A DNA stretch of 64,000 bases from Candidatus Bathyarchaeota archaeon. Its GTDB lineage: Archaea > Thermoproteota > Bathyarchaeia > Bathyarchaeales > Bathycorpusculaceae. This document shows, piece by piece, positions 4,606 to 64,000 of the stretch. The stretch is taken from the NCBI GenBank assembly GCA_963767735.1, contig CAVYES010000004.1, positions 160,001 to 224,000 on the forward strand, in the 5' to 3' direction. The position numbers and the translations under genes were made by a program. The notes under the pieces were generated by a model. It was not told where the DNA came from. It saw nothing but the letters and a program-made list of their open reading frames with translations, and ran no database searches. Numbering within the stretch: position 1 is the first letter of the stretch; every line of letters starts with the position of its first letter.

Positions 4606-6035
4606 TAATCTTCACTTTCAAACGTTTTTTTCTTTATCACTGCCATGCCGACTCCTGGAATAGGTAACGGCGACTTTACAGAACATAGAACAGCCAACGA
4701 AGTGCTCCAGAAAACATCATCGTGCCCTCCTTCGGGATGACTAAAGCGCAAATGTCCTGTCTTCATGAGTTCAAACTTTTCAATATTCAATTCCGCTGTA
4801 AGATCAATATCGGCTATTTTTCTCGTCGGAACATATGGGATCTTTACTTCGCCATTGCGCATCTTTTCTCTTAGAATCGTCGCCATCTCTTCTTTAGAAT
4901 TGATTGTGAAATTTACCCCAGTTACGCCTTGGATCCCGCTGCGAACCATATCTTCAACAATATAGTTTCCAACTCCTGTGACGTCGGCACGCACTGCTCG
5001 AACTATTTTCCAGCGATCTTGCAGGCTCCTGATATAACCTATGACGCTTGCATACTCGGTATGCAACGGAAAGCGATGAACATGAACCACTCTCAGCATT
5101 GACCCTTGCTTCTCAACCACCAACACAACACTGAAATCATGTTCCTTGCCAAAATCAACACCCACATAAAACTCGCCATTCGGTTGGGCTTGAAAATCAT
5201 AAAATGCAAGTTGACCATCAATGCAACTGACGATAAGGCTCTGTGTTAACCATGCATCAATATCCTCGACGAATTCAGACATGAACTCCCGCTGAAAACG
5301 CTCAAATGGCAACTGGCTTCGCATCTCATCGATAAAACTCTGCTTAACCAAACCACTCCGGACAACATCCTCGCATGTTACAGTGTGCTTGCTGAATTCT
5401 GGCGCTTGGCACATACGGTAGAAAACACTGTCTTTACTCCATGGAGTGCTACTAGCAATTAAGGTGCCATCGGTAGTTGACAGCATAGGGTAGAGTACGT
5501 TGTAGAAGACCAGTCTATCATCTTTAAAGAATCCTGATTCATCAGTGATAACTTGGGACGCTGTGTAGCCACGAAGCAACTGGGGACTATTAGGCAAAGC
5601 AACAATACGACTTCCATTCTTAAAACGGATTGTTGTACGTTGCATCCTATCAACAAGCTCCACGCTTTTACATTTTGATAAGCTTGAAAGAAAGTCTTGA
5701 ATGCGATCACTCATAATCATGCTCTGTCGCAACGTTGGCGCAACAATTAGAGTTACCGTTTTAGGATACTTGCATGCAAACCAGATAGCCCTCAAAGCTA
5801 TACATGTGGTTTTTCCAGCTTGTCTACTCCAACGAACAACAATGCGCTTACTCGTGTCCCGGAGGAGCCCAGCTTGGTACACCTTTGGGTCGAAACCAAA
5901 GAAGGCTTGCGCAAAAGCAACAGGATCATCGGGAATCACTAATTCTTTCGGAAGCTGTTTTGCTCCTTCCAGGTTTTTCTTCCTCAACTCGATCATCCTT
6001 TCTACATTGTTCAGTTTGGAACTCACCGATCTCAT
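4605..6035 (-). CDS. terL: Terminase large subunit
   Basis: Walker A-like SRQAGKT, Walker B ITDES, STP motif III, RNase H-like nuclease (GVDFG...D, HDD). Confidence 0.95.
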   Translation of the reverse strand: MRSVSSKLNNVERMIELRKKNLEGAKQLPKELVIPDDPVAFAQAFFGFDPKVYQAGLLRDTSKRIVVRWSRQAGKTTCIALRAIWFACKYPKTVTLIVAPTLRQSMIMSDRIQDFLSSLSKCKSVELVDRMQRTTIRFKNGSRIVALPNSPQLLRGYTASQVITDESGFFKDDRLVFYNVLYPMLSTTDGTLIASSTPWSKDSVFYRMCQAPEFSKHTVTCEDVVRSGLVKQSFIDEMRSQLPFERFQREFMSEFVEDIDAWLTQSLIVSCIDGQLAFYDFQAQPNGEFYVGVDFGKEHDFSVVLVVEKQGSMLRVVHVHRFPLHTEYASVIGYIRSLQDRWKIVRAVRADVTGVGNYIVEDMVRSGIQGVTGVNFTINSKEEMATILREKMRNGEVKIPYVPTRKIADIDLTAELNIEKFELMKTGHLRFSHPEGGHDDVFWSTSLAVLCSVKSPLPIPGVGMAVIKKKTFESED

Positions 6036-6354
6036 CGACTAGTCGCTCCAACTTCGCTAAATCCTCATTAAACTGGCGTTCATCAAATCCTTTTGCCAAG
6101 TTACCCATTGCCAAAGCAACATGGGCGGCTACATGACCCCACATCTGCCGCTGTTGTAAGTGAATCGGTTTCTCATCTTCGCCGATTTTTTGTTCGACTG
6201 GCTCACCTTTTGCGATGGAACTGGCCAACGTAAATAATGCTTCCAACTGATCCATTGTTCTCTTTCTAAGTTGCTGGGTATTATAGTCCACTTCTCTATG
6301 GAGAAAAAAAATACGTCTTTCAACCAAAACTGTGTAGCTTGGTTTGTGTCTCAT
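5926..6354 (-). CDS. Helical protein, candidate terminase small subunit
   Basis: Immediately upstream of and overlapping terL; size and helical character only. Confidence 0.45.
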   Translation of the reverse strand: MRHKPSYTVLVERRIFFLHREVDYNTQQLRKRTMDQLEALFTLASSIAKGEPVEQKIGEDEKPIHLQQRQMWGHVAAHVALAMGNLAKGFDERQFNEDLAKLERLVDEIGEFQTEQCRKDDRVEEEKPGRSKTASERISDSR

Positions 6355-9470: not shown

Positions 9471-9750
9471 GTTTGTTCACCTCCCCGCTTCTTTGCCACA
9501 ACAAATCTTTTAGCTGATATTCGAGCTGCTGAATTTTCTTCTGTTGAGATAGCAGTATGCATATGGCCATGGGTTCAAAGGTTATTGGGTTGCATGCGCA
9601 GCTGCCGGCAGATGCAAGATTTCTACACATATCCATCATCTCATCAAAAGCTGCTTTTTCTTCCTCGTTTGGCAGCGCATTGCGAAAGTTCTCCCAGTGG
9701 TGTATTTCGTCTTCCAATGCCATTCGATAAGAAGGCACAGTCTTACCCAT
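9451..9750 (-). CDS. Small helical protein of the MG(R/K)TxPS family (arCOG07300-like, usually PolB2-associated)
   Basis: N-terminal MGKTVPSYR motif recalled from that family. Confidence 0.6.
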   Translation of the reverse strand: MGKTVPSYRMALEDEIHHWENFRNALPNEEEKAAFDEMMDMCRNLASAGSCACNPITFEPMAICILLSQQKKIQQLEYQLKDLLWQRSGEVNKHGFSNT

Positions 9751-46548: not shown

Positions 46549-46645
46549 CGGGCCCGGTGGGATTTGAACCCACGATCTCCGGCTATCTTCCGCTCATAGG
46601 AGCGTCCGAAGGCCGACACCTTAATCCGTGCTAGGCTACGAGCCC
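46549..46645 (-). tRNA. tRNA-Arg(TCG) with a 21-nt canonical 37/38 intron (46585-46605)
   Basis: Acceptor GGGCTCG/CGGGCCC, T arm GTGGG-TTCAAAT-CCCAC, BHB motif (CTTC/GAAG helix, GGA and ATA bulges). Confidence 0.95.
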
Positions 46646-46772: not shown

Positions 46773-48209
46773 TCAATCCGTCTTGGGTTTTCGGTAGAAG
46801 TGTACGCCGTTCATCTCGTCGAATTTCTCGTATCCTTTCCTGGCTACTTCTCTGAGTTCCTGCGGATTTCTTACCTCGACTATGTCGTATTCTTGGTCGC
46901 CGAAGCATTGAGCTGCAAGCTGCGCGTAGATCTGAACATAAGCTAATGAGCTGTGGCCTAGTAGATATTGGACTGCGTCTGGGTTGCCTTTGGCGTGGCG
47001 TTCTTTGGTTGCTCTCCAGTATCGGCAGCTGTAGAAGCTGATCTTTTTCAGTTCTGGATTGTTGAGTTTCTTAACTGCCCGGTTGCGCATTCTTCTGAAG
47101 ATGCATCCGGCGTTGTCAATGTTACCATAGGTGAAGACAAGTTTTCCGTTTAAGTGGGGCAGCGATAACAGCATATCTATCAGTGCTTCGCTTACCTGGA
47201 TGCTTCGGCAGTTACCGCCTTTCGCTGGATGATTGATGTTTATTCGTTTGTGTGGCTTGTCAATGTCCACCCATTCAATTCTCAAGGTTTCGATGGGTCG
47301 AGCTGCGGTTGCTTGCATTGTGAAACAGAAGGCGGCCATCTGAGTGCTGCAGCTTGAAAAAAGTTGGTCCTGATGTTCTTTTGGCGGTATGTAGGGGATT
47401 TTTCGTTTGAATTTGACTCTCGGTATATCTGCTTTGATGTTGTTGTGGGCCAAGAAGCTTTTGTAGGCCTTGGTTAACCCATTCTTTCTTATGGGAGTCA
47501 CGGTTTTTAATGCGTCTGAAGCCATGACTTCCCTGAAAGAGTCAGGATCGTACAGGTTAACGCCGAGTTTTGCTAGCCGTAGTAGGCTGTAGCCGTAATT
47601 GCGTACTGTTACGTCTACTTTGCCTTCAAGTTTGAGCTGGTGCTGGAAGTCTTTGATGACGATTTCGATGCCTTTCTCCGGTTGTTGCTGTTGTTTTTCT
47701 CCCTGCAAAACGCCCTTTTGTTCGGACGTTTGCAGCGTCAAATTTTTCGCTCCTTGCGCATATTTGGCGTTTTCTTGTATGCCAACCTGACTATTTATGC
47801 CTTCATTCAAATCCAAAGGGAGATAGCTGTTGGCAACTTGTTTAGCTCGTTCAAGGTCGTTGGGATCAGAGAAGCGTCGTCCGCAGGACTTGCAAACATA
47901 ACGCTGTATCTTAACATCGAAGTTACTGGTTGAAGTTCCGTTTTTAGAAACTCGGTGGCTGCCACATTCCGGGCACTGGGGGCTGGCACCGGCGTCCTCA
48001 GTTAGGGGCGACTTGCGACTAGTTAAACCGGCTTTACCAAATATGCGACTCTTCGCAAGTCCAGCTTTCCCCGCATCGTCTACTGATTCGGTTTCAGTCA
48101 CGTGGATCCCTTCCTTGCCTTCTGAGCGAATCGTAACCCCTGTCGTACCCCCATTTGGTTGAGGAGGGACCACTTGGTCCCGTCTGGTAACGATTTGTGC
48201 GCGAAACAA
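46773..48209 (-). CDS. Tyrosine integrase with an N-terminal Zn ribbon
   Basis: CPECGS...CKSCG; catalytic R (ARPIE), K (AKGG), YxxR in place of HxxR, LGH, Y; adjacent to a tRNA. Confidence 0.9.
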   Translation of the reverse strand: MFRAQIVTRRDQVVPPQPNGGTTGVTIRSEGKEGIHVTETESVDDAGKAGLAKSRIFGKAGLTSRKSPLTEDAGASPQCPECGSHRVSKNGTSTSNFDVKIQRYVCKSCGRRFSDPNDLERAKQVANSYLPLDLNEGINSQVGIQENAKYAQGAKNLTLQTSEQKGVLQGEKQQQQPEKGIEIVIKDFQHQLKLEGKVDVTVRNYGYSLLRLAKLGVNLYDPDSFREVMASDALKTVTPIRKNGLTKAYKSFLAHNNIKADIPRVKFKRKIPYIPPKEHQDQLFSSCSTQMAAFCFTMQATAARPIETLRIEWVDIDKPHKRININHPAKGGNCRSIQVSEALIDMLLSLPHLNGKLVFTYGNIDNAGCIFRRMRNRAVKKLNNPELKKISFYSCRYWRATKERHAKGNPDAVQYLLGHSSLAYVQIYAQLAAQCFGDQEYDIVEVRNPQELREVARKGYEKFDEMNGVHFYRKPKTD

Positions 48210-51649: not shown

Positions 51650-52783
51650 ATGATAAGCGTACGTGTCAACTGCTTCAAGCCGTCGGTTGATGGATTCCAA
51701 TTCGGGAATCAATGGCCGCCGGGAACCCCTGATTATATAGTCAATATCCTGGGGCAGAATGTCACCATAGGAAGCGCAGCAAACGGTCTTTGTGGGGGCA
51801 TGGTCTACGCCGTGGCGGACATATTCGAGGCGGGTGATCTCCCTCCAGCCATCACCACTCCGCCAGCAGCAGGAACGTCGTTGTTCACCTATATCGTCGC
51901 ACGCCTGACGAACAGCTTCGACTGGGATGATGTAAATCAATACCTGTCCTGGATCCAGATGTCGGATCATGACACAGGTTTCGATACTCCATTTGGCCAT
52001 GTGACTACGGCACGTGGTCTTGCGTGGCATGAAATCACTGAAGAGTGGCCCAAGATTAAGGCAGATCTCGATGGCGGCTCCGTTTCGCTTCTAGGGCTGG
52101 TTCATGGTCAGGAGCCACCCACCATCGGTTTCATCACGGGACTACAGGATCTCGGTGGGTGTCATCAGGTGCTCGCGTGGGGATATGACTTGGATGGCAC
52201 GAACCTCACCATCTACATCTACGATCCCGACAATACTGGAGATGGAAACACCATTACCCTGGACATCGGTAACCCTGCCCACACGACACCGATCTCCGTA
52301 TCCCAGTGGCCCAACGGGACATTTCGTGGATTTTTCAGGACTCACTATCAGTTCCACGATCCCACGACCCCGGCCTCTGGCTCACTCGTTGGCATCGGCG
52401 TTGTCAGTAGCCCCGGGTTGACCGGATTGGCGCTCAACCCCTGTCTCCAGCCTCCACCTCCACAACTTTTAATGATTGTCACGGCTAGTCCTTTCCCCGT
52501 TCCTCTCAACACGCCAGTCGCGCTGACGGTCTCTGCTGAGGATGCCGCGACTCATGTGCCGCTCGATGGCACTGTCACTCTTCTGAATTATCCTGGTCCC
52601 AAGATCATCTCGTTTCCTACGGGCAAGCCGTTCCAGGTGACGCTGGGGTTAGGAACAATAACGGTGCAGAAGAGGATCAACATGGATGGATCGTTCAAGA
52701 TAGTGCAGGTCAAGGAAACAATCTACCCTGGGGTTACGGTTTCCGTTCCCAAGTATCGTGCTGGTGGTCTAACATTTCAGTGA
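51650..52783 (+). CDS. Papain-fold cysteine-peptidase-like protein with a C-terminal beta domain
   Basis: Cys (GLCGGM), His (HQVLAWGY), Asp (IYDP) triad pattern; visibly GC-richer DNA. Confidence 0.6.
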   Translation: MISVRVNCFKPSVDGFQFGNQWPPGTPDYIVNILGQNVTIGSAANGLCGGMVYAVADIFEAGDLPPAITTPPAAGTSLFTYIVARLTNSFDWDDVNQYLSWIQMSDHDTGFDTPFGHVTTARGLAWHEITEEWPKIKADLDGGSVSLLGLVHGQEPPTIGFITGLQDLGGCHQVLAWGYDLDGTNLTIYIYDPDNTGDGNTITLDIGNPAHTTPISVSQWPNGTFRGFFRTHYQFHDPTTPASGSLVGIGVVSSPGLTGLALNPCLQPPPPQLLMIVTASPFPVPLNTPVALTVSAEDAATHVPLDGTVTLLNYPGPKIISFPTGKPFQVTLGLGTITVQKRINMDGSFKIVQVKETIYPGVTVSVPKYRAGGLTFQ

Positions 52784-53824: not shown

Positions 53825-55273
53825 TTACGGTTGATTTATGATTTGAAGAACCATATTCAGGACATTTGGGTCAGAGGGAAGATCTGTGTGACTCAGTGTA
53901 CTTCCCATACAAACAAGGTTATTTTTAGTTGGATCAAAGTTTATACCCAAAATATCCGCACTAGGGTAATCAAAAATATTGGGTGATGGCTGATCATTCG
54001 CAATGTTACCCGAGAACCCACTATGACCCGTGAAATCGCTCAGATCATACACGCTTTTCGCTGGAACTGTTCCGTCCCCAACTTTGTCATATAACGGGTA
54101 CGGACCAACGTCCTGAGGTTCAGCAGCATCAGGATCTGGAAACCATAAACCAGTAGGGGTTTGCATTCTGTCGGAGTAGAATGCATACGTCTGGCCAGGG
54201 AGAAAAGTATCATAACCGAGATCATCATGAAAGGACAAAGCGTTGTTGACAAGAGTCGAAACACTTCCCGCGGACACTACAGGTCCTCCCCCTCCATCCA
54301 ACGCGTAAACATTCCCCCATTTTCCTGCGTTAAGTTTGCTTTCTGATTGCAAGTAAGTTCCTTTTATAGTTGGTTCGGAATCATAAAAGCAAGTTACTAA
54401 TGGTCTGTAATCTCCTCCTTTCGTCTGATCAAAGTATACGCCGTACTGATTGTCCGGGAGCAATTGATATACCAGCTGCATTTCTCCCACTATACCTTGT
54501 TGATTCGGAGGCCCATGGCTTGAAAGACCCAAGTCATTAAATTGGAAGCCGGTTCCTGTCCTCAAAACTCTATAAGCTTTTGGCGCGCCGTGGCTTGGTG
54601 TTGCAATCAGGATTTGAGCTTTGACAGAGTTCTGCGGGAATGGGTTCAAAGTCGCCCCATTGGTCCATGGGTCCTTCCCACCTGAAGGTGATTGGTTTGG
54701 GTCTTGAAGGTACTTATCTGATAAGTACGCTCTAGAGATTAAGCCACCGGTGCTGTGGCCGATCAAGTAGATGTCCGAGCCCGCGTTTAGTTTCTGCCCG
54801 CCTAGGATGTATTGCGATATGAAGTAATTCAGTTCGTATGCGTGCTGTCTTATGTCTATTCTCCAATCGTATGGGTACTCAAAAAAGACGTTGGTAGAGT
54901 CCGCGACAGCCGCAGACTCATTCACACTCTTCCACAAACCCTCTTTGGTTCTAATTGACCAGATTTGGTCCCCAGAACTCGTTTTTTGGTCACGGAAAAA
55001 GCTCGTTGTTTTCGTGTAGCCTGGAGCGAAGCCATGCCCTAATAAGGAGATGTCGTCATCCTGTATCAGCTGGTTAGCGCTTAGAGTATAGGTGGGTGAT
55101 GAAAGTGCATCTGAGCCTACTTGATCGGTTCCTTCCATGAAATCCTTGGTTAGAAATACTTTTTTGCCAGCCGCAGGACTCGCCCCTCCAAATGTCTGCG
55201 AGTTATTATTCGGGTTCGGAACATAGAGATCCGACCCAGCTATACCTGGAATGAATATGACTGACTTGGCCAT
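53825..55273 (-). CDS. Alpha/beta-hydrolase lipase/acyltransferase (LCAT/PGAP1-like)
   Basis: FIPGIAGS oxyanion motif, YDWR, GHSTGG nucleophile, TP.HG, GDGTVP, C-terminal His. Confidence 0.85.
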   Translation of the reverse strand: MAKSVIFIPGIAGSDLYVPNPNNNSQTFGGASPAAGKKVFLTKDFMEGTDQVGSDALSSPTYTLSANQLIQDDDISLLGHGFAPGYTKTTSFFRDQKTSSGDQIWSIRTKEGLWKSVNESAAVADSTNVFFEYPYDWRIDIRQHAYELNYFISQYILGGQKLNAGSDIYLIGHSTGGLISRAYLSDKYLQDPNQSPSGGKDPWTNGATLNPFPQNSVKAQILIATPSHGAPKAYRVLRTGTGFQFNDLGLSSHGPPNQQGIVGEMQLVYQLLPDNQYGVYFDQTKGGDYRPLVTCFYDSEPTIKGTYLQSESKLNAGKWGNVYALDGGGGPVVSAGSVSTLVNNALSFHDDLGYDTFLPGQTYAFYSDRMQTPTGLWFPDPDAAEPQDVGPYPLYDKVGDGTVPAKSVYDLSDFTGHSGFSGNIANDQPSPNIFDYPSADILGINFDPTKNNLVCMGSTLSHTDLPSDPNVLNMVLQIINQP

Positions 55274-55651: not shown

Positions 55652-58600
55652 TTGAGGGCAGAGAAGATGATTTCAGGATTATATACCTATAAATGGTTCG
55701 ACCCAGATAATAAATTGGAGGAATGGGTTTTTTCAGATGAGGGCGGAGACTTCCTTTCTGGGATCGTCACTAAACTGGGTCAAGTTTTGATGACCGTTTC
55801 CACCAATCTCTCAACCCCCGATGGATTAACTAGGATTCTTAGGCAACAAGGTTGGGATGTATCATCGGTTCAGGGTACCTTTGACGTTAGCGAAATTTCC
55901 AAAGCTATTAACGACATTTCTTCAAAGCTTTTTTCTGGGACCACACCTTCGCCCGATGATATCACTGGGCTCATACAGGACATAGTTAACATAGTTACAG
56001 ACTTAGAGAATTTTCAGAAGAATCTGTCGAGCGCCAGCTTCGCGCCTTTCAACGATACAAGTTTTAGCTGGTCGGATTTTGGCGAGGAGCTGTTAGGTAG
56101 CCTAATTGACCAGCAACTGGCTTCGAGTATTCCATGGCTTCACCTCCTGCTAAACATACTCGGTATAATTCAGACCAAATCGGTAGATGTGGGAAAAACG
56201 GCAGGCAGGATTAACTACACGGAGACAAGAATACGACTGGATAGGATTTCAGAGATAGTAAATCCCGAAGCCTTACTACAGGACGTATACGGTTGGAACA
56301 GTTCCCCCTTCGATTCTGGGGCGTTCCTTCAGTCACTCGCAGACCTCATAAATGCTATTGGCCTGCAAGCCGAAATTATTGCACCCGACCCCTCCCTTCT
56401 CTCACTTTACTACGCCTCGACAAATACGAGCCAAAGTCAAGTCAATCAACTCGAGGTTCCCCTTTACACTGTGAACACATCAGAGGACGGCGTAGTCAAT
56501 TTTTCACTTTCTGCACTCCCTATCCCGAAAGACGATGGCACGGGCTCACCCGTTGGAATAGCACTCGTAGCCTCTCTAACTGGTCTTCCTTCTCAAGCAA
56601 GTCTAGGAAGCTGGTCGTTTGGACTAACCGGAATCTCCACTACAGCAAATGCTCTGAGACTTGAAATTCGCCCAGGAGAGGCCATTAAGGTAACATCTGA
56701 CTTTTCATTAGGTGCACAACCTCTCGGTTTGGCAGTGGCATATAAACCGGGTACCCCATTCTTCGTCTTTGGAGACGGATCGTCGAATTCACTTCAGTTA
56801 TCAGACGTCTCAATCGGAATAAGCGTTAATCCAGGAAATGGCAATGAGGTGATATTGAGTCTTGGAGTGGATGACGCTAAGCTAATGATAGATCTCTCGG
56901 GGTCCGGGGTGGATTCCTTCATACAGACCATATTAGGTTCGGGTCAGTCAACAGTTGAATTCAAGAACGTCGGGATTGCTTATTCTACAAAGTCAGGTTT
57001 AACGTTCAAAGGCAGTGCCTCACTCCAAGTAACGATTCCGTTGAATCTTCAGCTCGGGCCGATTACCATAACTGGGCTCACGATAGGAATCTCACCGCAG
57101 AACTCAAATCTCGCAATAATATTGGCAGTTAGCGGAAGCATCAGCCTCGGGCCGGTGACAGGGACGGTCGATAATATCGGAGTTATAATAATGGCTAATT
57201 CGAGACCTCAGGGCCAGTTGGTGGATGCAACAAGCAGCGACCCAGCTAACGCCCTTCCTATCTCGATAGGGTTCAAGCCTCCAGACGGCATTGGAATCAG
57301 TATTGACGCCGATGTAGTCTCCGGTGGAGGTTACCTTGCATACGATTCGACCAAGAAAGAGTATTCAGGCGCGCTCCAGCTGGAAGCCGCGGGGATAAGT
57401 CTCAGTGCCTATGGCTTCCTCGATACGGTGATGCCGGGCGGTGGCGGCGGCTACTCGTTGGTCCTTATCATTGATGCTCAGTTCGGTGATCCTGGACTCG
57501 AGATAGGCTTCGGCGTAGCATTAACGGGCATCGGCGGTCTCGTAGCAGTGAACAGAACGATGAATCTGACCGCCCTTTTGGCGGACGTCCAGAACAACAC
57601 CATCCAGAACCTGCTTTTCAACACAGATCCGGTCAATAACGCCCCCCAAATCATAAGCGGGCTTGCGGCACTTTTCCCACCAGAACAGGGAGAATTCGTC
57701 TTTGGACCTATGGTACAGCTCCAGTGGGGTCCTGGCTCGATTGTAACCGCAAATATCGGCGTATTCATAGAGCTAACGAAGGCACCTAAGGTCGTCATCG
57801 TTGGCCAAATGAGTTCCCAGATTCCCAGTCCCGACACCGCACTGATAAACCTTAACGTCGATGTCAACGGATTCATCGACTTCCAAGCAGGGGACCTTGG
57901 GTTCGATGCCAACATCTACAAATCCTACCTAACCATCTTCTCCATCTCGGGACAAATGTCACTGAGGGCACACATTAAAGACAATCCCATGTTCCTGCTT
58001 TCCATAGGCGGCTTTAATCCTAACTTCCAGCCGCCACCCAGCTTCCCTACACTTTCCAGAATCAAAGTAGGGCTCTGCACGCAGCCCCAACTTCTCGTCA
58101 ACCTCACTTGTTACCTCGCTGTCGGCTCAAACCCGTTCATGGTCGGAGCTGAAGTCGATGCCTACGCCTCAGTGGGAAACTTCTACGCACAGGGCAAACT
58201 AGGCTTCGATGCGCTCTTCATCTTTAGTCCATTCAGCTTCACAGTTGACATATGCGCCAGCTTCGCGATTGGATACTCCAATGCCATAATCTTGGCCGCT
58301 GGGCTCTCAGGCACGCTTTCCGGAACAGCGCCTTGGGTTATAGACGGCAGCGTATCCTTCACGTTCCTCTTCTTCCACCCGAGCGTAAGCTTCCACGCCG
58401 TCGTAGGATCAGCCGTCCAACAAGCAGCTCCGCAAAGCGCAGGGGCGGTCGGGGCTGCGCTCACGAATGCGCTGCAAACTCCAGCCAACTGGAGCAGCGG
58501 CACTCCTACTGGCGTCATCAACGTGGTCTCGATTAACCAGCCCACTCCCCCCGACAGCAACACAATCTTAATGGACCCAGTCGGAACGCTATCGGTTAAG

Positions 58601-59251
58601 CAAAGCGCCGTTCCGCTTGCCACGCCAATTACTGCCTACAACAACTCGCCTCAAACCCCAACTTTAAACATAAACATGACAGGTGTCGCACTGGCAGGCG
58701 CGACTGGAGCAACCCCCCAGAACTTAGACCCTTCACAGTCGCAGAGTATAGTAGATCAATTCGCCCCAGCCTCCTACGAGATCCTAACGGACGACCAGAA
58801 GCTCTCGTCCCCCTCATTCCAGCCTCTTCCCGGCGGGGTAACTGTCGCTCCAACTTACTCGAATGCCAGCGTCGACAATACTGGCCCACCGGTCAACTAC
58901 GTTACTAAGTACGTCGACACAGCAGCAACAATGACGAATATCACGAGTGCTTACACCCCTTCCGCCTCAAGATTCCAGACGCTTGTATCCTCAGCAACAG
59001 CAGGTCAATCAGCACTGGCCAACTCGGGACCTCGAAAATACATGTCTGGACCCAGTTCCAGCGTCTCGGTAGAAGACGACTCGTACGTACTAGTCAGCAC
59101 CGACAAAATAACGCCCGTAGGCATGCCCGAAGGGGTCTCGTCCATGGCGTGGTCTCAAGCCAACGGAGCGCTACAGTCATACCTTGCAGCCAATCCAATG
59201 GAGAAGGGATACGTCCAGATCATTCCCCAAACGGAGGTCGCGTCAAGTTGA
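55652..59251 (+). CDS. Large beta-rich protein, DUF6603-like
   Basis: FKPPDGIG, SGGGYL, G.GGL..VNR, FVFGP, LSIGGF.P.F, GFDALF motifs recalled from DUF6603 proteins; exact start uncertain. Confidence 0.7.
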   Translation: MRAEKMISGLYTYKWFDPDNKLEEWVFSDEGGDFLSGIVTKLGQVLMTVSTNLSTPDGLTRILRQQGWDVSSVQGTFDVSEISKAINDISSKLFSGTTPSPDDITGLIQDIVNIVTDLENFQKNLSSASFAPFNDTSFSWSDFGEELLGSLIDQQLASSIPWLHLLLNILGIIQTKSVDVGKTAGRINYTETRIRLDRISEIVNPEALLQDVYGWNSSPFDSGAFLQSLADLINAIGLQAEIIAPDPSLLSLYYASTNTSQSQVNQLEVPLYTVNTSEDGVVNFSLSALPIPKDDGTGSPVGIALVASLTGLPSQASLGSWSFGLTGISTTANALRLEIRPGEAIKVTSDFSLGAQPLGLAVAYKPGTPFFVFGDGSSNSLQLSDVSIGISVNPGNGNEVILSLGVDDAKLMIDLSGSGVDSFIQTILGSGQSTVEFKNVGIAYSTKSGLTFKGSASLQVTIPLNLQLGPITITGLTIGISPQNSNLAIILAVSGSISLGPVTGTVDNIGVIIMANSRPQGQLVDATSSDPANALPISIGFKPPDGIGISIDADVVSGGGYLAYDSTKKEYSGALQLEAAGISLSAYGFLDTVMPGGGGGYSLVLIIDAQFGDPGLEIGFGVALTGIGGLVAVNRTMNLTALLADVQNNTIQNLLFNTDPVNNAPQIISGLAALFPPEQGEFVFGPMVQLQWGPGSIVTANIGVFIELTKAPKVVIVGQMSSQIPSPDTALINLNVDVNGFIDFQAGDLGFDANIYKSYLTIFSISGQMSLRAHIKDNPMFLLSIGGFNPNFQPPPSFPTLSRIKVGLCTQPQLLVNLTCYLAVGSNPFMVGAEVDAYASVGNFYAQGKLGFDALFIFSPFSFTVDICASFAIGYSNAIILAAGLSGTLSGTAPWVIDGSVSFTFLFFHPSVSFHAVVGSAVQQAAPQSAGAVGAALTNALQTPANWSSGTPTGVINVVSINQPTPPDSNTILMDPVGTLSVKQSAVPLATPITAYNNSPQTPTLNINMTGVALAGATGATPQNLDPSQSQSIVDQFAPASYEILTDDQKLSSPSFQPLPGGVTVAPTYSNASVDNTGPPVNYVTKYVDTAATMTNITSAYTPSASRFQTLVSSATAGQSALANSGPRKYMSGPSSSVSVEDDSYVLVSTDKITPVGMPEGVSSMAWSQANGALQSYLAANPMEKGYVQIIPQTEVASS

Positions 59252-62200
59252 GCAATCCGAACCTCGCTAACTATAGCTTCTACTCCTGGGCAAGAGTCGG
59301 AGCTGCCAATCAAATCGCCACCCCCGACGACTTCGGTGGTACGACCGCGTCGAAAAATGCGCCCCTACGTGCACAAATCAATATCCAATTACAGCTCAAT
59401 GACGGTTCGGGCGGTCCTCCTTTAACGGCCAACTCACCAAACATCCTGCTCTACGCGCCCCTTGACGTCACAGGAATCGATTCAAGAGTGTTTTCTCTCA
59501 TTCCAGGGATGCAGCCTTCTGGAACAACTTTCCCAGCAGCAGGTTCAGATAACTTCGAGTCGAACTACCTTCCCTCCTTAGAGTTCTCCGAACACGACCT
59601 GCCGTGGCGATACACTCCCGTTGGTCCAAACCTCGGCGGCGCCAACAGCCCCAGCGGTCTACGCCCTTGGCTCTGCTTAATAGTACTCGCGGACAACGAG
59701 ATTCAATCCTTTACTGCACCATCATCCAGCTTAAAACTTGGTCAAGTAATAGTCATCCAGTCGGTCAACTCTGCAGGTGTTTCTACCCTTCCTCTCCCCG
59801 ACCTGACCGAATCTTTCTACTGGGCTCATGTACAAGTCGCCGCCAGCGTTCCGACGGGCCAAACTTTCTCCGACTTTATTCAAGAGAACAAGACTCTAGT
59901 GAAATCACGACTCGTTTGTCCAAAGATCGCTCCAAGCGAACACCCACTACACTGCCTTCGTGGTCCCTGTATTCAAGAGTGGCGCGCAAGGAGGTCTAGG
60001 GCAGACCGTAAGCTCCACTGGGGTGGGTACAGACAACGCCTGGGACGGGAGTGAAACAAGCGTTACCCTTCCAGTCTACTACTCTTGGGACTTCACAACC
60101 GGACCAGGAGGAGACTTTGAGTCGCTTGTGCTGCAGCTTGTTGCCAGGGATGCGCCCAACGCCATAGGCACTCGGCAAATCGACGGAAGCAATCCAGATC
60201 CCACAACTAACTTCCCATCCGCAGGTCCTCTCACCCTTGCCGGAGCCCTCTCGTCTGCAGGCTCCACCCCCTTCCCACTGACGGAAGCGCCGGGATTCGA
60301 CAACGCCCTCCTTTCATACCTGAACGCATCCACCACCCTCACCTCGCCTCCGAAGGTGGCAGCTCCAGTTTACGGCAAGTGGTACACAGCATCAGATACC
60401 CTCGTGGCTGGAACATCACCTCCCTGGCTCTACAACCTGAATGTTCACCCCGGCAACAGGATGGCGGCTGCAATTGGAGCTGAGGTCATCCAACAGGAAC
60501 GCCAATCCCTTTTGCAGGCCGCATGGTCGCAGGTCCAAGGCATCCAGCAGGCGAACCAGACGTTGCGGCAAGCTCAGCTGTCCAGAGAGGTTCTAAGCCA
60601 ACTCTACAATGAGTACCTCACCCCCGCGCCAACTGAGCAGACCCTATTCGTCACGGCCCCAGTCCAGTCGAGAATACTGAACGGCGATAAGACAGTAAAA
60701 AACGACGTAAGCAGGTCTCCGCTTCCAAGAGGCACTCTGTCTCCAGCCTTCCAGAAAGTGCTAAGGCCACTAGGTCCCATTAGATCGCGTCAAAACCCGC
60801 GGCCCGCAACTACGCCCGGAATCATCACAAGGCTTAATAACGGTCAACTCAATCCCTCACCATCCCCTCCGCCCGTCGCCAACGCTTCGACTTTAAATAA
60901 CGTATCGAATTCGATAGGTGCCTCTTCTCTCCCTCCATGGCTTCTTTCCATTTTCCAGTATCTATACCCTTCATATGGTTATTGATAGTCGTATTGTTTC
61001 TGCTAGGCGTATTGGTCTTCGGTCTTTCTCCCCTTGATCCAGCTCTCGTGGCACTCGCCATCCTACTATTCGCTCTCGGTTTCGCTCTTCAAACCTTATA
61101 CAACAAGTGGAAGCTCGCGAGCCAGACAGCGTCATCAAACCTCACAGCACAGGTTATTCAATCCGTTCCACCGCGTTCCAGCTTCACCTTGGTCACTTCA
61201 AACCAAGCTCCTGTTACCGCAACGTCGACGGGAGCCACTGATACCGTAACCGCAGCGAACTTTCGTGCCGCAGCCTCGGCCCTTCAAAACTACGTGCTTG
61301 ATCCGCTTCCCGCCCGAAAAGTTCGAACTCCTCTCGATCTGAACGCTATAGCCAAAACTATGGTAGCAGGGCTTGATCCTTCGAAAACGGTTCCTGCAAG
61401 GATTCAACCGCGGCTCAACCTTCCTGCATCGCTGAATTGGGCACCGCAGGATCCGCTGCAGACAATACTGTTTGGACCAATGTTTACACAACCCTTGTCC
61501 AAGCCTCTTGTAGCGCGTTGGCCAAACTTTTACCTCCCAGGGTATGGGCAGATACCTGCCAATTCGGTGTTGGTGTTGCAGACCAATCCGGTCTGGGAAG
61601 AGGCATTTATGGTTGGCGCGAACTATACGTGGTTCCAGATAGCCTTGTTCAACGGCTTGTCTACAGACTCACGCTTCTCATCCTTTCTTTATTTCAAAGA
61701 CAAGTCTAGTTGTCCTCCCCCAATTCAGCCTGATATCAATCCGATTTACTTCTGGCCCGCCTCGAATGACTTGGGCGAGAATGGAGCGGATCCCGCGTTA
61801 TCAGCAGGCCAGCTTGTGCTGCTTATATGCGGCAATCTCCTAAGGAGGTATCCCATTCCGGGAAGCACGGCGATATTTGCGGCAAAGGTTTCCCAGGACT
61901 CTAGTGGAAACAGAACGATAAGTTCGGACGAATACCCTCCAGTTTTCACCTGCACGCTTCCCCCTAATATCTCGCTTCTGGGATTTAACCTGACATCAGC
62001 GCAGGTTACTGCGCCGCCGACAGATCCCTCCGACCTCGGCTACTACTTCATAATACAGCAACACCCCTCTACCCCGAAGTTCGGGCTGGAGACTGCCGAT
62101 TGGACAAATCCCGCGATGGCGAACTTCCTCTCACCAGCTGGCTACCTCAAGGTCAACCCTGCCAATGGTAGTCCATTCACTCTTTCAGGCGGAGCCACAT

Positions 62201-62316
62201 GGCCGCCTACCGAACTGAACGCGTCTAATGTCGCATCAATCACCCTCAGGGACCCAGTTCAGGTGGCATACAATGCAAAAGCGCTGATCACCCCGGCTTC
62301 CCCAGGAGGCGCCTGA
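59248..62316 (+). CDS. About 1000-aa uncharacterised protein with a TM hairpin, split by two frameshifts (about 59923 and 60969)
   Basis: TTGA coupling and GGAGG SD; continuous protein LPWRYTP..LRPWL..WAHVQ..SRLVCP / RSLQANTHY..LPVYYSWDF.TG..GDFESL..QAAW.Q / TM / EAFMVGAN..LLRRYP. Confidence 0.75.
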
Positions 62317-62319
62317 CAC

Positions 62320-64000
62320 ATGTCCTACAGCCTACACCCGCTCAAGTCGCAGATTTCTTCCCTTATCTCAGCCAGGTCCGGTCTCCTCGATCAGCTTACT
62401 CAGGCCGACAACGAAAGGTTTAACGCGCTTACCGCCCTGAACGCTTTGATAGCAAAAGGGATTCCAACCAGCGATCAAACATATACTCAGACCTCTACAC
62501 GCCTAGTTACTGCCAACGAAAATCTCAACCAGGCGCGCACCGATCTGACCCAGAACCAAAACCAGCTAAGCGCTGCAATAACAAGTTTCGCCTCTCCTGG
62601 CCTTAGCTCAACGATTCAGGGCATCGCCGCCACCGTGCCAATCTTAATGTTGCCTGTCAGAATGGAAACGAGATATGTCGCAGGCACCAGCGGCACAGAG
62701 CTATGGATCCGCATTTATCCCGACGAGATCGAAGTCGATACGTTCGAAGGTATCCTTACCCAAGATGAAATTAGCCAGGATCCAAACAGCTCTATTCCTA
62801 CAACCCCACCTATTATTACTTCAGCTCAGTGGGCCATTCTCGCGAACAGATTTGGGCCTAGGCGAGCAGCTTGGATCGTGAACAAGGCAGACCCGACGCA
62901 AACCCCGAAGAACTCTTCATGGACTGTTGCGCCCGCGAGCCACGTACTCCCAGACCAGTGGGTTGCAGTTGCATGGTCGAACGGAACATCCTCGATAATC
63001 GCGACAGGGAATCCAATTACCCCTTCCCCGCTCAATGTGGGACCCGACCCATCTTCTGCCGCTCCCTCAAGCAGTTCCGACCTGCCGATAGACGCCAACA
63101 TGAAGTGGATGAGCGATTTCACCACCGCTTACTCTCAAGGTATGGCGTTGATAGTCCCCGCTTCCAGTATTCCCTCAGGAGGCATCGACAGACTAATCGT
63201 TCTAGGAGTCAAAGCATCAGCAGATTCAGTTACGAGCTCCACGCTACTTGGGAATCTTCACGATCACCACCATTACACCGACGGCATCGGCTTTGTCCCG
63301 AAGGGAACAGCTGCACACAACTCAGGCACAATAAGATCAGGCTACACCTCATCTGATCCAGGTTACCAGAACAGCTTCGCGGTCGAGATAGGAGCCAGCC
63401 TATTCACTCCGCACACCGACCCTGACCAAATGACAGACGCCGAACTCTACGCGTACGCACTGGGAATCAGCTCAGACTACTTCCAACATGTCGAAAACGC
63501 AGGACTGACCCAAAGACAGAATGCCAAAAATATGATGACGGCAGTCTGGCCTGCAACACTCGGATACTATCTACAGCAAATGATTCTTGACCCCCAAAAC
63601 GCCGCAATAGAGAGCCTAAGAGAGTACACCGTGGAAAATGTGTGCCCCAGTGGGCTTCTCCCGACGCTTCGAGTAGGGCGCACTCCGTACGGCATCCTGC
63701 CTGTGATGTCCGTACAGTCATCTTCAAATAATTCTCCTATAGTCCTCCGCGCCGGAGGAGGTGCCCTTGCGATTCTCGGACAGCTCATCCAGACCTGGCT
63801 CGGCTTCGTAGCTAGCGTACCAGTGATAGGAAGCACCAATGACCCCGATCAAGAGCTCATCTCCATTTTCGGCATGGACTCGAACTCGAGCCAATTCGCC
63901 GTCAGGTACGCTTTTGCAATCCAATACATGGAGAACCTGCTGGACTTCCTTGGTGTCCAAGCTTCGACGGTTTCTGCTTGGCTCAAGTCGGCGACAACAC
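62320..64000 (+). CDS. Large uncharacterised protein, open to the window end (not in the ORF track)
   Basis: GGAGG SD, ATG 62320, no stop to 64000; N-terminal coiled coil, then LPVRMETRY, LWIRIYPD, FGPRRAAW, HHYTDG, WPATLGY, RVGRTPYGILPV. Confidence 0.85.
   Translation, partial: MSYSLHPLKSQISSLISARSGLLDQLTQADNERFNALTALNALIAKGIPTSDQTYTQTSTRLVTANENLNQARTDLTQNQNQLSAAITSFASPGLSSTIQGIAATVPILMLPVRMETRYVAGTSGTELWIRIYPDEIEVDTFEGILTQDEISQDPNSSIPTTPPIITSAQWAILANRFGPRRAAWIVNKADPTQTPKNSSWTVAPASHVLPDQWVAVAWSNGTSSIIATGNPITPSPLNVGPDPSSAAPSSSSDLPIDANMKWMSDFTTAYSQGMALIVPASSIPSGGIDRLIVLGVKASADSVTSSTLLGNLHDHHHYTDGIGFVPKGTAAHNSGTIRSGYTSSDPGYQNSFAVEIGASLFTPHTDPDQMTDAELYAYALGISSDYFQHVENAGLTQRQNAKNMMTAVWPATLGYYLQQMILDPQNAAIESLREYTVENVCPSGLLPTLRVGRTPYGILPVMSVQSSSNNSPIVLRAGGGALAILGQLIQTWLGFVASVPVIGSTNDPDQELISIFGMDSNSSQFAVRYAFAIQYMENLLDFLGVQASTVSAWLKSATT

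Follow-up and report, generated by a model that had tools for sequence, protein, structure and literature searches.

Which genes make up the row of giant proteins that begins near the end of the 64,000-nucleotide window of Candidatus Bathyarchaeota archaeon, where do they come from, and what might they do? The locus is almost certainly a conserved four-gene cassette, horizontally acquired and carried on an integrative element. We used an operational definition of the four-gene DUF6603 cassette, drawn up in the present analysis: homologues of all four genes, in a fixed order and on one strand, with short or overlapping junctions; all of these are found at the archaeal locus. The cassette lies on the + strand in the order 1-2-3-4, from position 55652 of the window (the whole stretch of DNA analysed) to window-relative position 68813; the window holds genes 1, 2 and part of 3, and the final 1.5 genes lie past its end.

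Gene 1 (55652..59251, ORF and Pfam PF20248) is intact and encodes a DUF6603 protein of 1199 aa. Gene 2 (59248..62316) gives a read-through of ~1020 aa; in the deposited assembly it is spread over three overlapping ORFs (59149–60054, 59960–60985 and 60937–62316), along which the bacterial homologues, single genes of about 1000–1100 aa, align in frame 3, then 1, then 3. A transmembrane (TM) hairpin is located in the middle of gene 2 (60970..61089); its two hydrophobic segments have Kyte-Doolittle 19-mer means of 3.11 and 2.34 and correspond to residues 12–30 and 33–51 of the third fragment. Gene 3 contributes its N-terminal 560 aa to the window (62320..64000; ORF 62320–63999, open at the window end) and extends, as read from the genome, to window-relative 67024, with a total of ~1567 aa; the homologue P0005 spans both of its fragments. 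Gene 4 (window-relative 67017–68813, + strand, also read from the genome) encodes 598 aa. Gene 2 probably starts with the TTG at 59248, which overlaps the TGA stop of gene 1; it stops at 62316, just before the start of gene 3 at 62320. No signal peptide is evident on any cassette protein, the translations being judged by eye. An earlier, sequence-only reading of this DNA had described a first gene of about 1200 aa with a β-strand-rich product (strands cross residues 266–918 of the AlphaFold2 model), a TM hairpin in the second protein, a third gene of more than 560 aa running off the end, tight coupling and no clear signal peptide, and all of these stand. Its three-gene operon holds as a gene set but not as a trio, since a 598-aa fourth gene follows the third; the size it gave for the second gene, about 1000 aa after frameshift repair, is right, but two repairs are required and not one. 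Annotation of the DNA past the window, which it had proposed as a check, yielded the rest of gene 3 and gene 4.

Concerning conservation, the window proteins were compared by tblastn with 80 loci kept from at least 589 relatives in 185,579 species genomes. The seven query pieces match 67, 69, 71, 75, 80, 77 and 69 of the 80 loci, and their order and strand are identical in every locus. All seven are found in 61 loci; each of the remaining 19 runs into a contig end. The median intergenic gaps are −2.5, 6.5 and 3 nt. Among 1.84 billion cluster representatives, a profile of protein 4 retrieves 5735 at E ≤ 0.001, of which 2506 reach E ≤ 1e-30. The carriers are soil-type bacteria of many phyla, together with haloarchaeal plasmids. 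A patchy presence in diverse bacteria had been stated earlier; the fixed order in many phyla bears this out, for four genes and not for a trio. The expectation that an archaeal copy would be notable is weakened by complete cassettes on haloarchaeal plasmids, annotated as DUF6603 or hypothetical.

The plasmid of Salinigranum marinum (NZ_CP100462.1, 334581–354217) likewise encodes DUF6603 followed by proteins 2, 3 and 4, with 26–35% identity to the window copy piece by piece, and its genes are annotated as DUF6603, as hypothetical or by an accessory domain only. Found on this plasmid and not in the window copy are an upstream PhoD-like gene, a halo_surf_dom insertion in protein 3 (E 1.7e-15) and a lamin-tail fusion of protein 4 (annotated lamin-tail-domain-containing). 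Protein 4 of the window copy belongs to a clade separate from that of Salinigranum; a tree forcing the two archaeal groups together is 53.6 lnL worse (p-AU 0.023, the group having been named after the tree was seen). Protein 4 homologues are found fused to lamin-tail, kelch or Ig-like domains, based on precomputed Pfam assignments and source names. The hydrophobic mid-segment of protein 2 is present in 29 of the 56 intact-length bacterial homologues and missing in 27.

Are the archaeal genes intact? There are three frame breaks, each a single-base difference, at 59922 and 60964 in gene 2 and at window-relative 64505 in gene 3. Near-identical soil-metagenome contigs (99+% identity over 13.3 kb) differ by only three indels, located exactly at the three breaks, and every one of them restores the reading frame. 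In gene 2 the contigs have one base fewer at L002 4922 and an extra G after L002 5964; with both indels applied, the gene is one ORF of 1135 codons stop-to-stop. In gene 3 they have one A fewer at L002 9505, in two runs from two studies, which gives an ORF of 1568 codons. Support for each indel is one low-depth contig (depth 2.0–3.5), with two runs for the third, and runs X1 and X2 possibly derive from the same sample as the genome. In the bacterial loci the three pieces of gene 2 form one ORF in 65/69 and 67/71 cases, and the two fragments of gene 3 in 74/77. Proteins 2 and 3 are therefore each broken in the deposited assembly and whole with the indels of the contigs at depth 2.0–3.5. From this sequence comparison, the three breaks most likely reflect errors in the consensus or a minority variant, and the genes are probably intact in nature, because each contig indel at a break restores the frame. 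It is improbable that the cassette is a decaying passenger in this archaeon, with genes 2 and 3 as true pseudogenes, its hydrolase partner lost and nothing functional left. Such decay is suggested by the breaks in the deposited assembly, by the absence of an upstream co-directional hydrolase and of any homologue elsewhere in the genome, and by the first 460 codons of gene 1, whose host-like GC3, different from that of the remainder, hints at rearrangement. However, contigs from public runs read all three sites as frame-restoring, the third in two studies; the four genes contain no stop codon over 13 kb except at the break sites; and the upstream ORF is also absent in 17 of the 61 bacterial loci.

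An integrative element of 31.8 kb, integrated into the 5' end of a tRNA-Pro gene, carries the cassette. This tRNA-Pro(cgg) (46549..46645, − strand, ARAGORN) probably contains an intron, since its 97 nt exceed the length of a plain tRNA. The attL core (46626–46645) consists of the 20 nt at the 5' end of the tRNA; its sole other copy in the 591-kb contig is attR, an exact 20-bp repeat 31.8 kb away at window-relative 78406–78425 (C4 238406–238425). A tyrosine recombinase (integrase) of 478 aa is encoded beside the tRNA (46773..48209, − strand; Pfam Phage_integrase, E 2.1e-10, 41.1 bits against a cut-off of 27.1). The site is empty in the congeners G430 and G420, where the same tRNA abuts the sequence found to the right of attR. 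An integrase by a tRNA, a far repeat and empty sites are the features of a tRNA-targeting tyrosine-recombinase element, and the integrative element proposed by the sequence-only reading is thus confirmed.

The GC content is 0.50–0.54 per 2 kb from 56001 on, compared with 0.35–0.48 across most of the window, in agreement with the GC-richer DNA noted earlier. The GC3 of the cassette is 0.54–0.61, whereas the host genes have a median of 0.445 and a 95th percentile of 0.534; the start of gene 1 (its first 460 codons) and the flanking element genes are host-like in composition. Of 401 genomes sampled from the phylum, this one alone has DUF6603; within those 401 it is found in 0/10 genomes of the genus and 0/25 of the family. 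The horizontal spread suggested from the sequence is supported by this distribution and by a GC3 well above that of the host. A GC content 10 points above the host, the bacterial origin of all of the best-matching 80 of at least 589 loci, and an estimated genome contamination of 2.51% could also point to bacterial DNA misjoined into an archaeal contig during assembly or binning, but such an artefact is extremely improbable: the cassette lies in the interior of a 591-kb contig, inside the att repeats and two host tRNA genes and with two empty congener sites; composition is host-like in the flanking genes and where gene 1 begins; and protein 4 falls in a four-member cluster at 90% identity, seen on contigs of 591, 316, 14 and 5 kb. 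The att repeats, the host tRNA genes and the 591-kb contig also speak against the chimeric bacterial contig which had been named earlier as a way for the reading to fall.

Protein 1 belongs to Pfam PF20248 (DUF6603), matched at E 2.4e-113 and 379.8 bits (cut-off 27) over residues 465–1042 and profile positions 2–495 of 502; a whole-genome search gives the same match at 382.1 bits. DUF6603 is the sole Pfam family in the cassette, the Pfam check proposed earlier having given no other explanatory match; NCBIfam has no match to the cassette proteins, the PDB none that explains them, and no paper was found under 'DUF6603' or 'PF20248'. In these sources, and in PADLOC and PHROGs (below), the cassette is without an assigned function, as had been stated. 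The searches of the four proteins bring up no ATPase, other NTPase or further recognisable source of energy, and neither a nuclease nor a known sensor domain.

The AlphaFold2 model of protein 1 (pLDDT 74.4, pTM 0.46) comprises a helical N-domain (residues 34–235), an antiparallel β-meander (266–918) which includes the DUF6603 core, and a mixed C-terminal part. Foldseek gives 12 PDB matches at E ≤ 0.001, all of them large β-barrels (SlpA, FimD/PapC ushers), with a lowest E of 3.6e-5 and TM of 0.12–0.2; the best match is the S-layer-anchoring barrel SlpA. In VIA-align, model residues 547–907 match 18-strand porins with Z 14–15 and an rmsd of about 10–11 Å over about 255–265 residues. The predicted DUF6603 core resembles a porin-like β-meander, and the likeness is topological only. 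It shares with the large outer-membrane β-barrels (18-strand porins, FimD/PapC ushers, Deinococcus SlpA, LptD) an all-next-neighbour antiparallel meander of long strands over about 360 residues; however, the superposition is poor (rmsd about 10–11 Å, TM 0.12–0.2), DUF6603 proteins have no signal peptide by eye, and the family is also found in monoderm bacteria and archaea, which have no outer membrane. For these reasons we do not place DUF6603 in any outer-membrane protein family. On the model, the long meander can equally be a soluble sheet or shell.

Concerning interactions, the C-terminal fragment of protein 3 (residues 520–832) and protein 4 obtain a predicted complex score of 0.77, against 0.00 for the best of three controls. 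This score is reached by 116 of 157 solved complexes and by 2 of 215 mismatched pairs, a rough guide here as our own alignments were used. The runs share at least 46% of contacts and the partner pLDDT is at least 64; no solved relative exists that could have supplied the result. The C-terminus of protein 3 is thus predicted to bind protein 4. The 'multi-subunit machine' of the sequence-only reading is supported by complex prediction for this one pair; that all four proteins form one physical complex is likely.

Are these proteins parts of a known system? No TcA family (VRP1, pore-forming, neuraminidase-like) or TcB/TcC family (RHS/YD) of Pfam is found at E ≤ 0.01 in the window pieces, the downstream genes or six protein 3 homologues, and Tc/Rhs chains match the models of proteins 1 and 4 at noise only (E 0.13, TM 0.07; probability 0.04–0.06). 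The Tc-toxin link raised from the sequence finds no support in the Pfam families of the cassette proteins or in the modelled folds of proteins 1 and 4. Tc (ABC) toxins consist of several giant signal-less subunits with an enzymatic payload and variable receptor-binding modules; the cassette, with its own giant signal-less proteins in a row, may be analogous, but its payload would be a separate gene, whereas that of Tc toxins is a C-terminal domain. The suggested AsmA/TamB/VPS13-like groove and eCIS parts also find no match above noise in the fold searches of proteins 1 and 4, the groove none in Pfam either; the fold lists of protein 1 are taken up by closed barrels and the ApoB100 belt (E 1.5e-3), without a TamB/AsmA chain among them. 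Sheath, tube and baseplate Pfam families are absent from the scanned ORFs of the element. For the four cassette proteins, PHROGs gives 0 matches and PADLOC-DB v2.0.0 (library from 2023) 0 families at E ≤ 0.01; PADLOC recognises just the gasdermin and TPR-protease genes downstream of the cassette. A match to a characterised system, which would have told against the earlier reading, appears in none of the Pfam, NCBIfam, PADLOC, PHROGs and PDB searches.

Looking at the neighbouring genes, in 44 of the 61 complete bacterial loci gene 1 is preceded by a co-directional ORF whose end is under 250 nt away; 17 loci have none. The families of this ORF are M64-like, PhoD-like, Nal1-like/S8, PLD and others, and the partner hydrolases are zinc proteases, PhoD-type phosphatases, trypsin- or subtilisin-like proteases and phospholipases D. 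Their catalytic motifs are conserved (HExxH 6/6; GDQIYAD and DDH; H/D/GDSG), and 25 of 26 N-termini are without a signal-peptide-like start by eye. The hydrolase family follows the cassette phylogeny and is not freely shuffled. The archaeal copy has no co-directional upstream hydrolase, and homologues of the M64-like, PhoD-like and Nal1-like families are absent from this genome at E ≤ 1e-4. The position is held by a divergent LCAT/PGAP1-like α/β hydrolase (lipase or esterase) of 482 aa (53825..55273, − strand; Pfam LCAT, E 4.7e-8), with a GHSTGG nucleophile elbow, no evident signal peptide and a host-like GC3 of 0.449. A homologue of this lipase is found in none of the 80 bacterial cassette loci. 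By this comparison the lipase is a neighbour and not a conserved cassette partner; the proposal that the cassette works with it finds no support in the opposite strand or in the bacterial loci. That a signal-less lipase sits divergently at the hydrolase position is an observation apart, with a putative link only.

Downstream of the archaeal cassette are a gasdermin gene (bGSDM, E 1.2e-37) and then a gene for a protease with TPR repeats; homologues of both are absent from all 80 bacterial cassette loci. Bacterial gasdermin–protease defence operons are described by Johnson et al. (bioRxiv 10.1101/2021.06.07.447441), and the likeness to them concerns only this downstream pair, not the cassette. 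An anti-phage or abortive-infection system, in which the giant proteins sense infection and free or activate a hydrolase or a membrane pore so that the cell dies, appears quite unlikely. The position of the cassette directly upstream of the gasdermin and trypsin/TPR protease pair on a mobile element is a typical defence-island layout, the Salinigranum plasmid copy has AbiE and PIN/DUF433 toxin–antitoxin genes within 10 kb, proteases and phospholipases are frequent defence effectors, and horizontal transfer has given the cassette a patchy distribution. Set against this are the PADLOC result (0/4 proteins) and the domain search, which found no NTPase, nuclease or known sensor; also, the downstream neighbours vary in the 61 complete bacterial loci, with no recurrent family, and surface-type binding modules on proteins 3 and 4 better fit an outward-facing role.

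The cassette may instead encode a self-contained complex which exports or delivers a hydrolase, a reading to which we give somewhat less than even chances and which draws on sequence and models. The four signal-less proteins would assemble into one large complex, anchored in the cytoplasmic membrane by protein 2 where its hairpin is present; the porin-like β-sheet of DUF6603 would form a pore or shell; and proteins 3 and 4, bound to each other, would make the outward-facing part, as suggested by the variable binding modules that they carry in certain lineages. Such a complex would then export, display or deliver the co-encoded signal-less hydrolase, whatever the envelope type of the host, with a logic akin to that of toxin complexes or dedicated secretion systems. 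The pore is limited by the quality of the model and of its superpositions (pTM 0.46, rmsd about 10–11 Å, TM 0.12–0.2), the anchor by the 27 of 56 protein 2 homologues missing the hairpin, and the hydrolase link by the co-inheritance of its family with cassette clades and by the 17 of 61 loci which, like the archaeal copy, have no such gene. Against export as a whole stands the finding that the four proteins show no recognisable ATPase or other means of powering it.

The same proteins could form a structural assembly without transport, either a layer at the cell surface or for adhesion, or else a shell or scaffold inside the cell, which the adjacent hydrolase would process or mature; we consider this rather unlikely. 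It fits large β-rich and helical proteins without catalytic motifs, SlpA as the top Foldseek match, the lamin-tail, kelch and halo-surface modules of the homologues, which are typical of surface proteins, and a hydrolase family co-inherited with cassette clades. However, a conventional surface layer is unlikely because the subunits have no signal peptide (by eye), and a core envelope role is disfavoured by the patchy distribution and the absence of the cassette from close relatives.

This archaeon thus has its own version of a giant-protein gene quartet which is common in soil bacteria and whose DUF6603 family is without a paper in our search. To return to export, the cassette could be a new, envelope-independent machine by which signal-less hydrolases leave the cell or enter target cells, a suggestion we make only tentatively. 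If true, it would represent a novel type of secretion system or toxin complex, with four giant proteins arranged around a porin-like β-sheet subunit; it would serve monoderm bacteria, diderm bacteria and archaea alike and be traded across domains by mobile elements.

The cassette consists of four genes on the forward strand, of which the last two run or lie past the window end and were read on L002 (contig CAVYES010000004.1, positions 215001–235000; adding 55000 gives the window coordinate). Gene 1 (55652–59251) is an ORF of 1199 aa, and gene 2 is read as three overlapping frames (59149–60054, 59960–60985 and 60937–62316). Gene 3 starts inside the window (62320–63999) as an ORF of 560 aa that is open at the window end. 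In full, this N-terminal fragment has 747 aa (L002 7320–9563); it is followed by a C-terminal fragment of 832 aa (L002 9526–12024) and by gene 4 (L002 12017–13813, 598 aa), beyond which the genome, read past the window end, is back to a GC content of 0.40–0.46. The sequence-only reading had described a trio of giant proteins and had asked for annotation of the DNA beyond the window; this gave three further ORFs, which complete gene 3 and add gene 4, and the set is a quartet. The 747- and 832-aa pieces are one gene, since the single homologue P0005 (1237 aa) spans both: its residues 41–790 align with the former and its residues 857–1220 with the start of the latter. Protein 1 is the sole cassette protein with a family (Pfam DUF6603, E 2.4e-113); the other pieces have no Pfam or NCBIfam match.

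The cassette, about 4,400 codons conserved as a set, has a GC3 of 0.54–0.61; the 591 host ORFs of at least 400 aa have a median of 0.445, with the 95th percentile at 0.534. In gene 1, codons 1–460 (55652–57031) are host-like (GC3 0.448), the remainder (57032–59251) reaching 0.60, and no other part is as poorly conserved across the DUF6603 family as this N-terminal one. Based on these two traits together, the domain may have been replaced or may be evolving fast.

By comparison with bacterial homologues, genes 2 and 3 change frame at L002 ~4925–4958, 5955–6042 and 9490–9535. We compared L002:600–13900 with Logan contigs of four public metagenome runs (three studies; three labelled soil). Among the matching runs listed none was of RNA, which carries no weight for or against expression. 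All 81 contig pieces are at least 99% alike to this stretch, and only three indels are reported across the 13.3 kb: one base is absent at L002 4922 (window 59922), a G is added after L002 5964 (window 60964), and one base is absent at L002 9505 (window-relative 64505). Each sits at a frame break and has the frame-restoring sign; the first two are each found on one contig, at a depth of 2.0–3.5, and the third in two runs from two studies, and the best-matching runs may be the genome's own source sample. With the indels applied, the stop-to-stop frames have 1135 and 1568 codons. Among the best 80 of at least 589 related loci (all bacterial), the three fragments of gene 2 lie within one ORF in 65/69 and 67/71 loci and the two pieces of gene 3 in 74/77; the median ORF lengths of genes 1–4 in the same best 80 are 1159, 1090, 1687 and 629 aa. 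CTAG lies next to two of the three sites, and two fall in A-runs (GCTAG|AAAAG; CTATA in the assembly vs CTAGC in the contigs). Judged by this context, long-read consensus errors would fit, which suggests systematic, perhaps methylation-linked, errors in the assembly. The breaks are probably not real and the cassette genes probably intact. The same kind of false break may affect further genes of this genome, and its apparent pseudogenes are, as a practical warning, probably consensus errors.

The host genome (G000; 3.04 Mb, 10 contigs, completeness 94.91%, contamination 2.51%) carries the window on a 591-kb contig and has a full-length archaeal 16S rRNA (RF01959, 1478.6 bits). McrA was not found in it, and archaeal AmoA was likewise without match, but the AmoA control matched nowhere either. 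The claim of an integrative element held up. A tyrosine recombinase (46773–48209) follows tRNA-Pro(cgg) (46549–46645, reverse strand, 97 nt), the 5' end of which forms a 20-bp att core (46626–46645); an exact second copy, found just once more in the contig, lies 31.8 kb downstream (contig positions 238406–238425). In the congeneric genomes G430 and G420 (loci L169 and L171), the tRNA directly abuts the sequence found past the distal repeat in G000, and tRNA-Ile(gat) lies about 90 nt from the uninterrupted site. As the repeat bounds the 31.8 kb and both congeners carry the uninterrupted site, sequence comparison identifies the segment as an insertion specific to G000. We consider it highly improbable that the cassette is an assembly artefact.

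Further genes on the element are those for HTH regulators and a divergently oriented LCAT-like lipase, alongside several ORFs that match no family. One ORF of 377 aa (51650–52783) has no Pfam match and, at GC 0.541 and GC3 0.587, appears no less foreign than the cassette. The cassette is followed closely downstream by a gasdermin homologue of 270 aa (PADLOC bGSDM, E 1.2e-37), and a 1065-aa trypsin-like protease with TPR repeats starts 19 nt after its gene; the pair occupies L002 14370–18398 (window-relative 69370–73398, past the window end). Gasdermin and protease form a known defence arrangement, as outlined in bioRxiv 10.1101/2021.06.07.447441, here present in an archaeon on the element shared with the cassette. 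Neither has a match in any of the best 80 of at least 589 cassette loci. Searches of PHROGs and PADLOC with the cassette proteins were negative. That the cassette is itself a defence system is, in our judgement, quite unlikely. The LCAT-like lipase, previously put forward as a partner, was dropped as a conserved one, its homologues being found in 0 of the best 80 of at least 589 loci.

The loci come from a pattern scan with protein 3 over one genome per species (185,579 species), which gave at least 589 stretches, the best 80 being kept. These best 80 belong to Acidobacteriota, Actinomycetota, Chloroflexota, Nitrospirota, Bacteroidota, Myxococcota, Cyanobacteriota, Verrucomicrobiota, Pseudomonadota and others. 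The seven pieces of the cassette, as read in the deposited assembly, match 67, 69, 71, 75, 80, 77 and 69 of them; order and strand are constant in every one, the complete set is present in 61/80, and the remaining 19 are each cut by a contig end on the deficient side. The junctions are tight in these best 80 loci, with medians of −2.5, 6.5 and 3 nt. Complete cassettes are found in at least 12 bacterial phyla and two archaeal lineages. In the host phylum, DUF6603 is present in one of 401 genomes, G000 itself (0/10 in the genus, 0/25 in the family). Protein 4 by itself is a family of several thousand sequence clusters: with its profile, 5735 representatives (of 1.84 billion) pass E≤0.001, 4679 pass 1e-10 and 2506 pass 1e-30. 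It also matches 14 of 72,556 plasmid records, four of them haloarchaeal (Salinigranum, Halalkalicoccus, Natrinema and Halobellus); the Salinigranum marinum plasmid has a complete cassette with a PhoD-like gene in front. On a Streptomyces anthocyanicus plasmid (NZ_CP109276.1, 222046–223851) a solitary protein 4 homologue lies downstream of two IS5 transposase genes, the other three cassette genes being absent; it is probably the remnant of a disrupted cassette. A second DUF6603 gene is present in some bacterial carriers (G401:C1:5907936–5909627; G405:C24:119151–119978); in one, an ORF of 2907 aa matches DUF6603 in part, evidence that the gene also occurs in fused or expanded form.

Protein 4 has its nearest homologues in P0048 and P0049 (51–53% identity); a metagenome scan gave 72 loci, all at 27–40% identity over long matches, and the contigs of these two are not among them. 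In a tree of 73 protein 4 sequences the G000 copy groups with three metagenome proteins (42–53% identity, support 100), five haloarchaeal rows form a separate clade (support 97), and the bacterial phyla are thoroughly intermixed. Forcing the two archaeal groups together, a grouping named after the tree was seen, costs 53.6 lnL (p-AU 0.023). A Terriglobia MAG (L045) and a complete Nitrospira genome (L065) have near-identical protein 4 sequences (branches 0.07 and 0.05), reflecting either a very recent inter-phylum transfer or a MAG binning error. The four-gene cassette is conserved and horizontally mobile, and has been captured by an archaeal integrative element.

Concerning the neighbourhood, a co-directional ORF ends less than 250 nt before gene 1 in 44 of the 61 complete loci (among the best 80 of at least 589). 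Grouped via all-against-all BLAST (E≤1e-3), these ORFs form a Nal1-like/subtilase group (15 loci, often in tandem), a PhoD-like group (10 loci), an M64-like group (8 loci) and a 370-aa family (3 loci); singletons include a phospholipase D and a beta-lactamase-like protein. Catalytic motifs are kept in these enzymes, and 25 of the 26 N-termini that were printed and inspected by eye lack a signal-peptide-like start. Three upstream hydrolases have no PDB relative by sequence. Neighbours farther up- and downstream are unrelated between loci. The archaeal cassette has no such co-directional gene upstream, and no homologue of one is found across G000. This would go with a cassette that is a dead passenger in its archaeal host, which the probably intact reading frames lead us to regard as distinctly unlikely.

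The searches for known relatives gave little. NCBIfam had no match for the five pieces in the window or for the homologues, and Pfam gave nothing useful over all 44 aligned protein 4 sequences. Profile searches of the PDB returned chance-level matches for protein 1 (de novo helical designs), protein 4 (G6P isomerase, E 0.26) and protein 3 (TALE repeats, E≥7e-4, no passing stretch), and none for protein 2. In the ESM Atlas, protein 2 matched unnamed bacterial clusters only and protein 3 had no usable named match. Literature searches found no paper on DUF6603/PF20248 (supplementary tables lying outside their scope) and, among the matches listed, nothing relevant on lamin tail domain, DUF, operon and haloarchaea. 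The four proteins are without a described function, solved relative or paper. The archaeal copy adds a new member to a gene set that is catalogued but unstudied and that corresponds to no system described so far.

The AF2 model of protein 1 (pLDDT 74.4, pTM 0.46) has a helical N-domain (34–235), about 40 long antiparallel strands (266–918) and a mixed C-terminal part. Foldseek gave 12 PDB matches at E≤0.001, all large beta-barrels (SlpA, FimD/PapC; TM 0.12–0.2), and VIA-align gave Z 14–15 against 18-strand porins (rmsd ~10–11 Å over ~260 residues, model 547–907). In the model the DUF6603 core is porin-like in topology, from which membership in the barrel families does not follow; the likeness to large outer-membrane barrels concerns the topology of part of protein 1, and sequence tests of membership were negative. 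They were also negative for Tc toxin complexes, which the cassette resembles in logic only; these complexes and the large outer-membrane barrels are its nearest known counterparts. The suggested Tc, TamB or eCIS folds did not emerge, no such chain being prominent for proteins 1 or 4, although this absence is no evidence of different folds. The model of protein 4 (pLDDT 77.2, pTM 0.75) had no Foldseek match at E≤0.001, and its best wide VIA-align match (Z 7.2, an 81-residue helical part) is inside the tool's stated noise range.

Binding to protein 4 is predicted for residues 520–832 of protein 3's C-terminal fragment, with a complex score of 0.77 vs 0.00 for the best of three controls; the contacts shared between runs amount to at least 46%, and partner pLDDT is at least 64. 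This mark was reached by 116/157 solved complexes and 2/215 mismatched pairs; as own alignments were used, both counts are approximate. Some protein 4 homologues have lamin-tail, kelch or Ig-like domains as accessory modules, and the Salinigranum protein 3 contains an inserted haloarchaeal surface domain (NF045517, E 1.7e-15). A strongly hydrophobic mid-segment is found in 29/56 intact-length homologues of protein 2 (two such segments in G000), compared with 1/54 for protein 1, 0/60 for protein 3 and 0/62 for protein 4.

We tentatively infer one large complex that could export, display or deliver the partner hydrolase, a transport that would be independent of the general secretion pathway and of the envelope type. 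Protein 2 would be the membrane anchor where the hairpin exists, the DUF6603 sheet a pore or shell, and proteins 3 and 4 the outward-facing, target-binding part. Against this reading are the missing energy source (no enzyme or ATPase domain is recognisable in the cassette), the absence of the protein 2 hairpin in about half of the family, a hydrolase family that tracks the cassette clades and a hydrolase gene that is sometimes absent, and the weak superposition behind the barrel likeness of protein 1. A structural assembly without a transport function is, in our view, unlikely.

As a conserved set in which no enzyme or ATPase domain is recognisable and which is regularly coupled to an active, signal-less hydrolase, the cassette is a credible candidate for a so far undescribed machine of secretion, toxin delivery or defence. 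Cultured carriers such as Solirubrobacter taibaiensis, Nannocystis sp., Nodosilinea nodulosa PCC 7104, Actinophytocola xinjiangensis and Salinigranum marinum, the predicted subunit interface and the partner enzymes are handles for testing. If such a machine works across very different cell envelopes, it would be of general interest, and the archaeal copy shows that the cassette is carried over the domain boundary by integrative elements.
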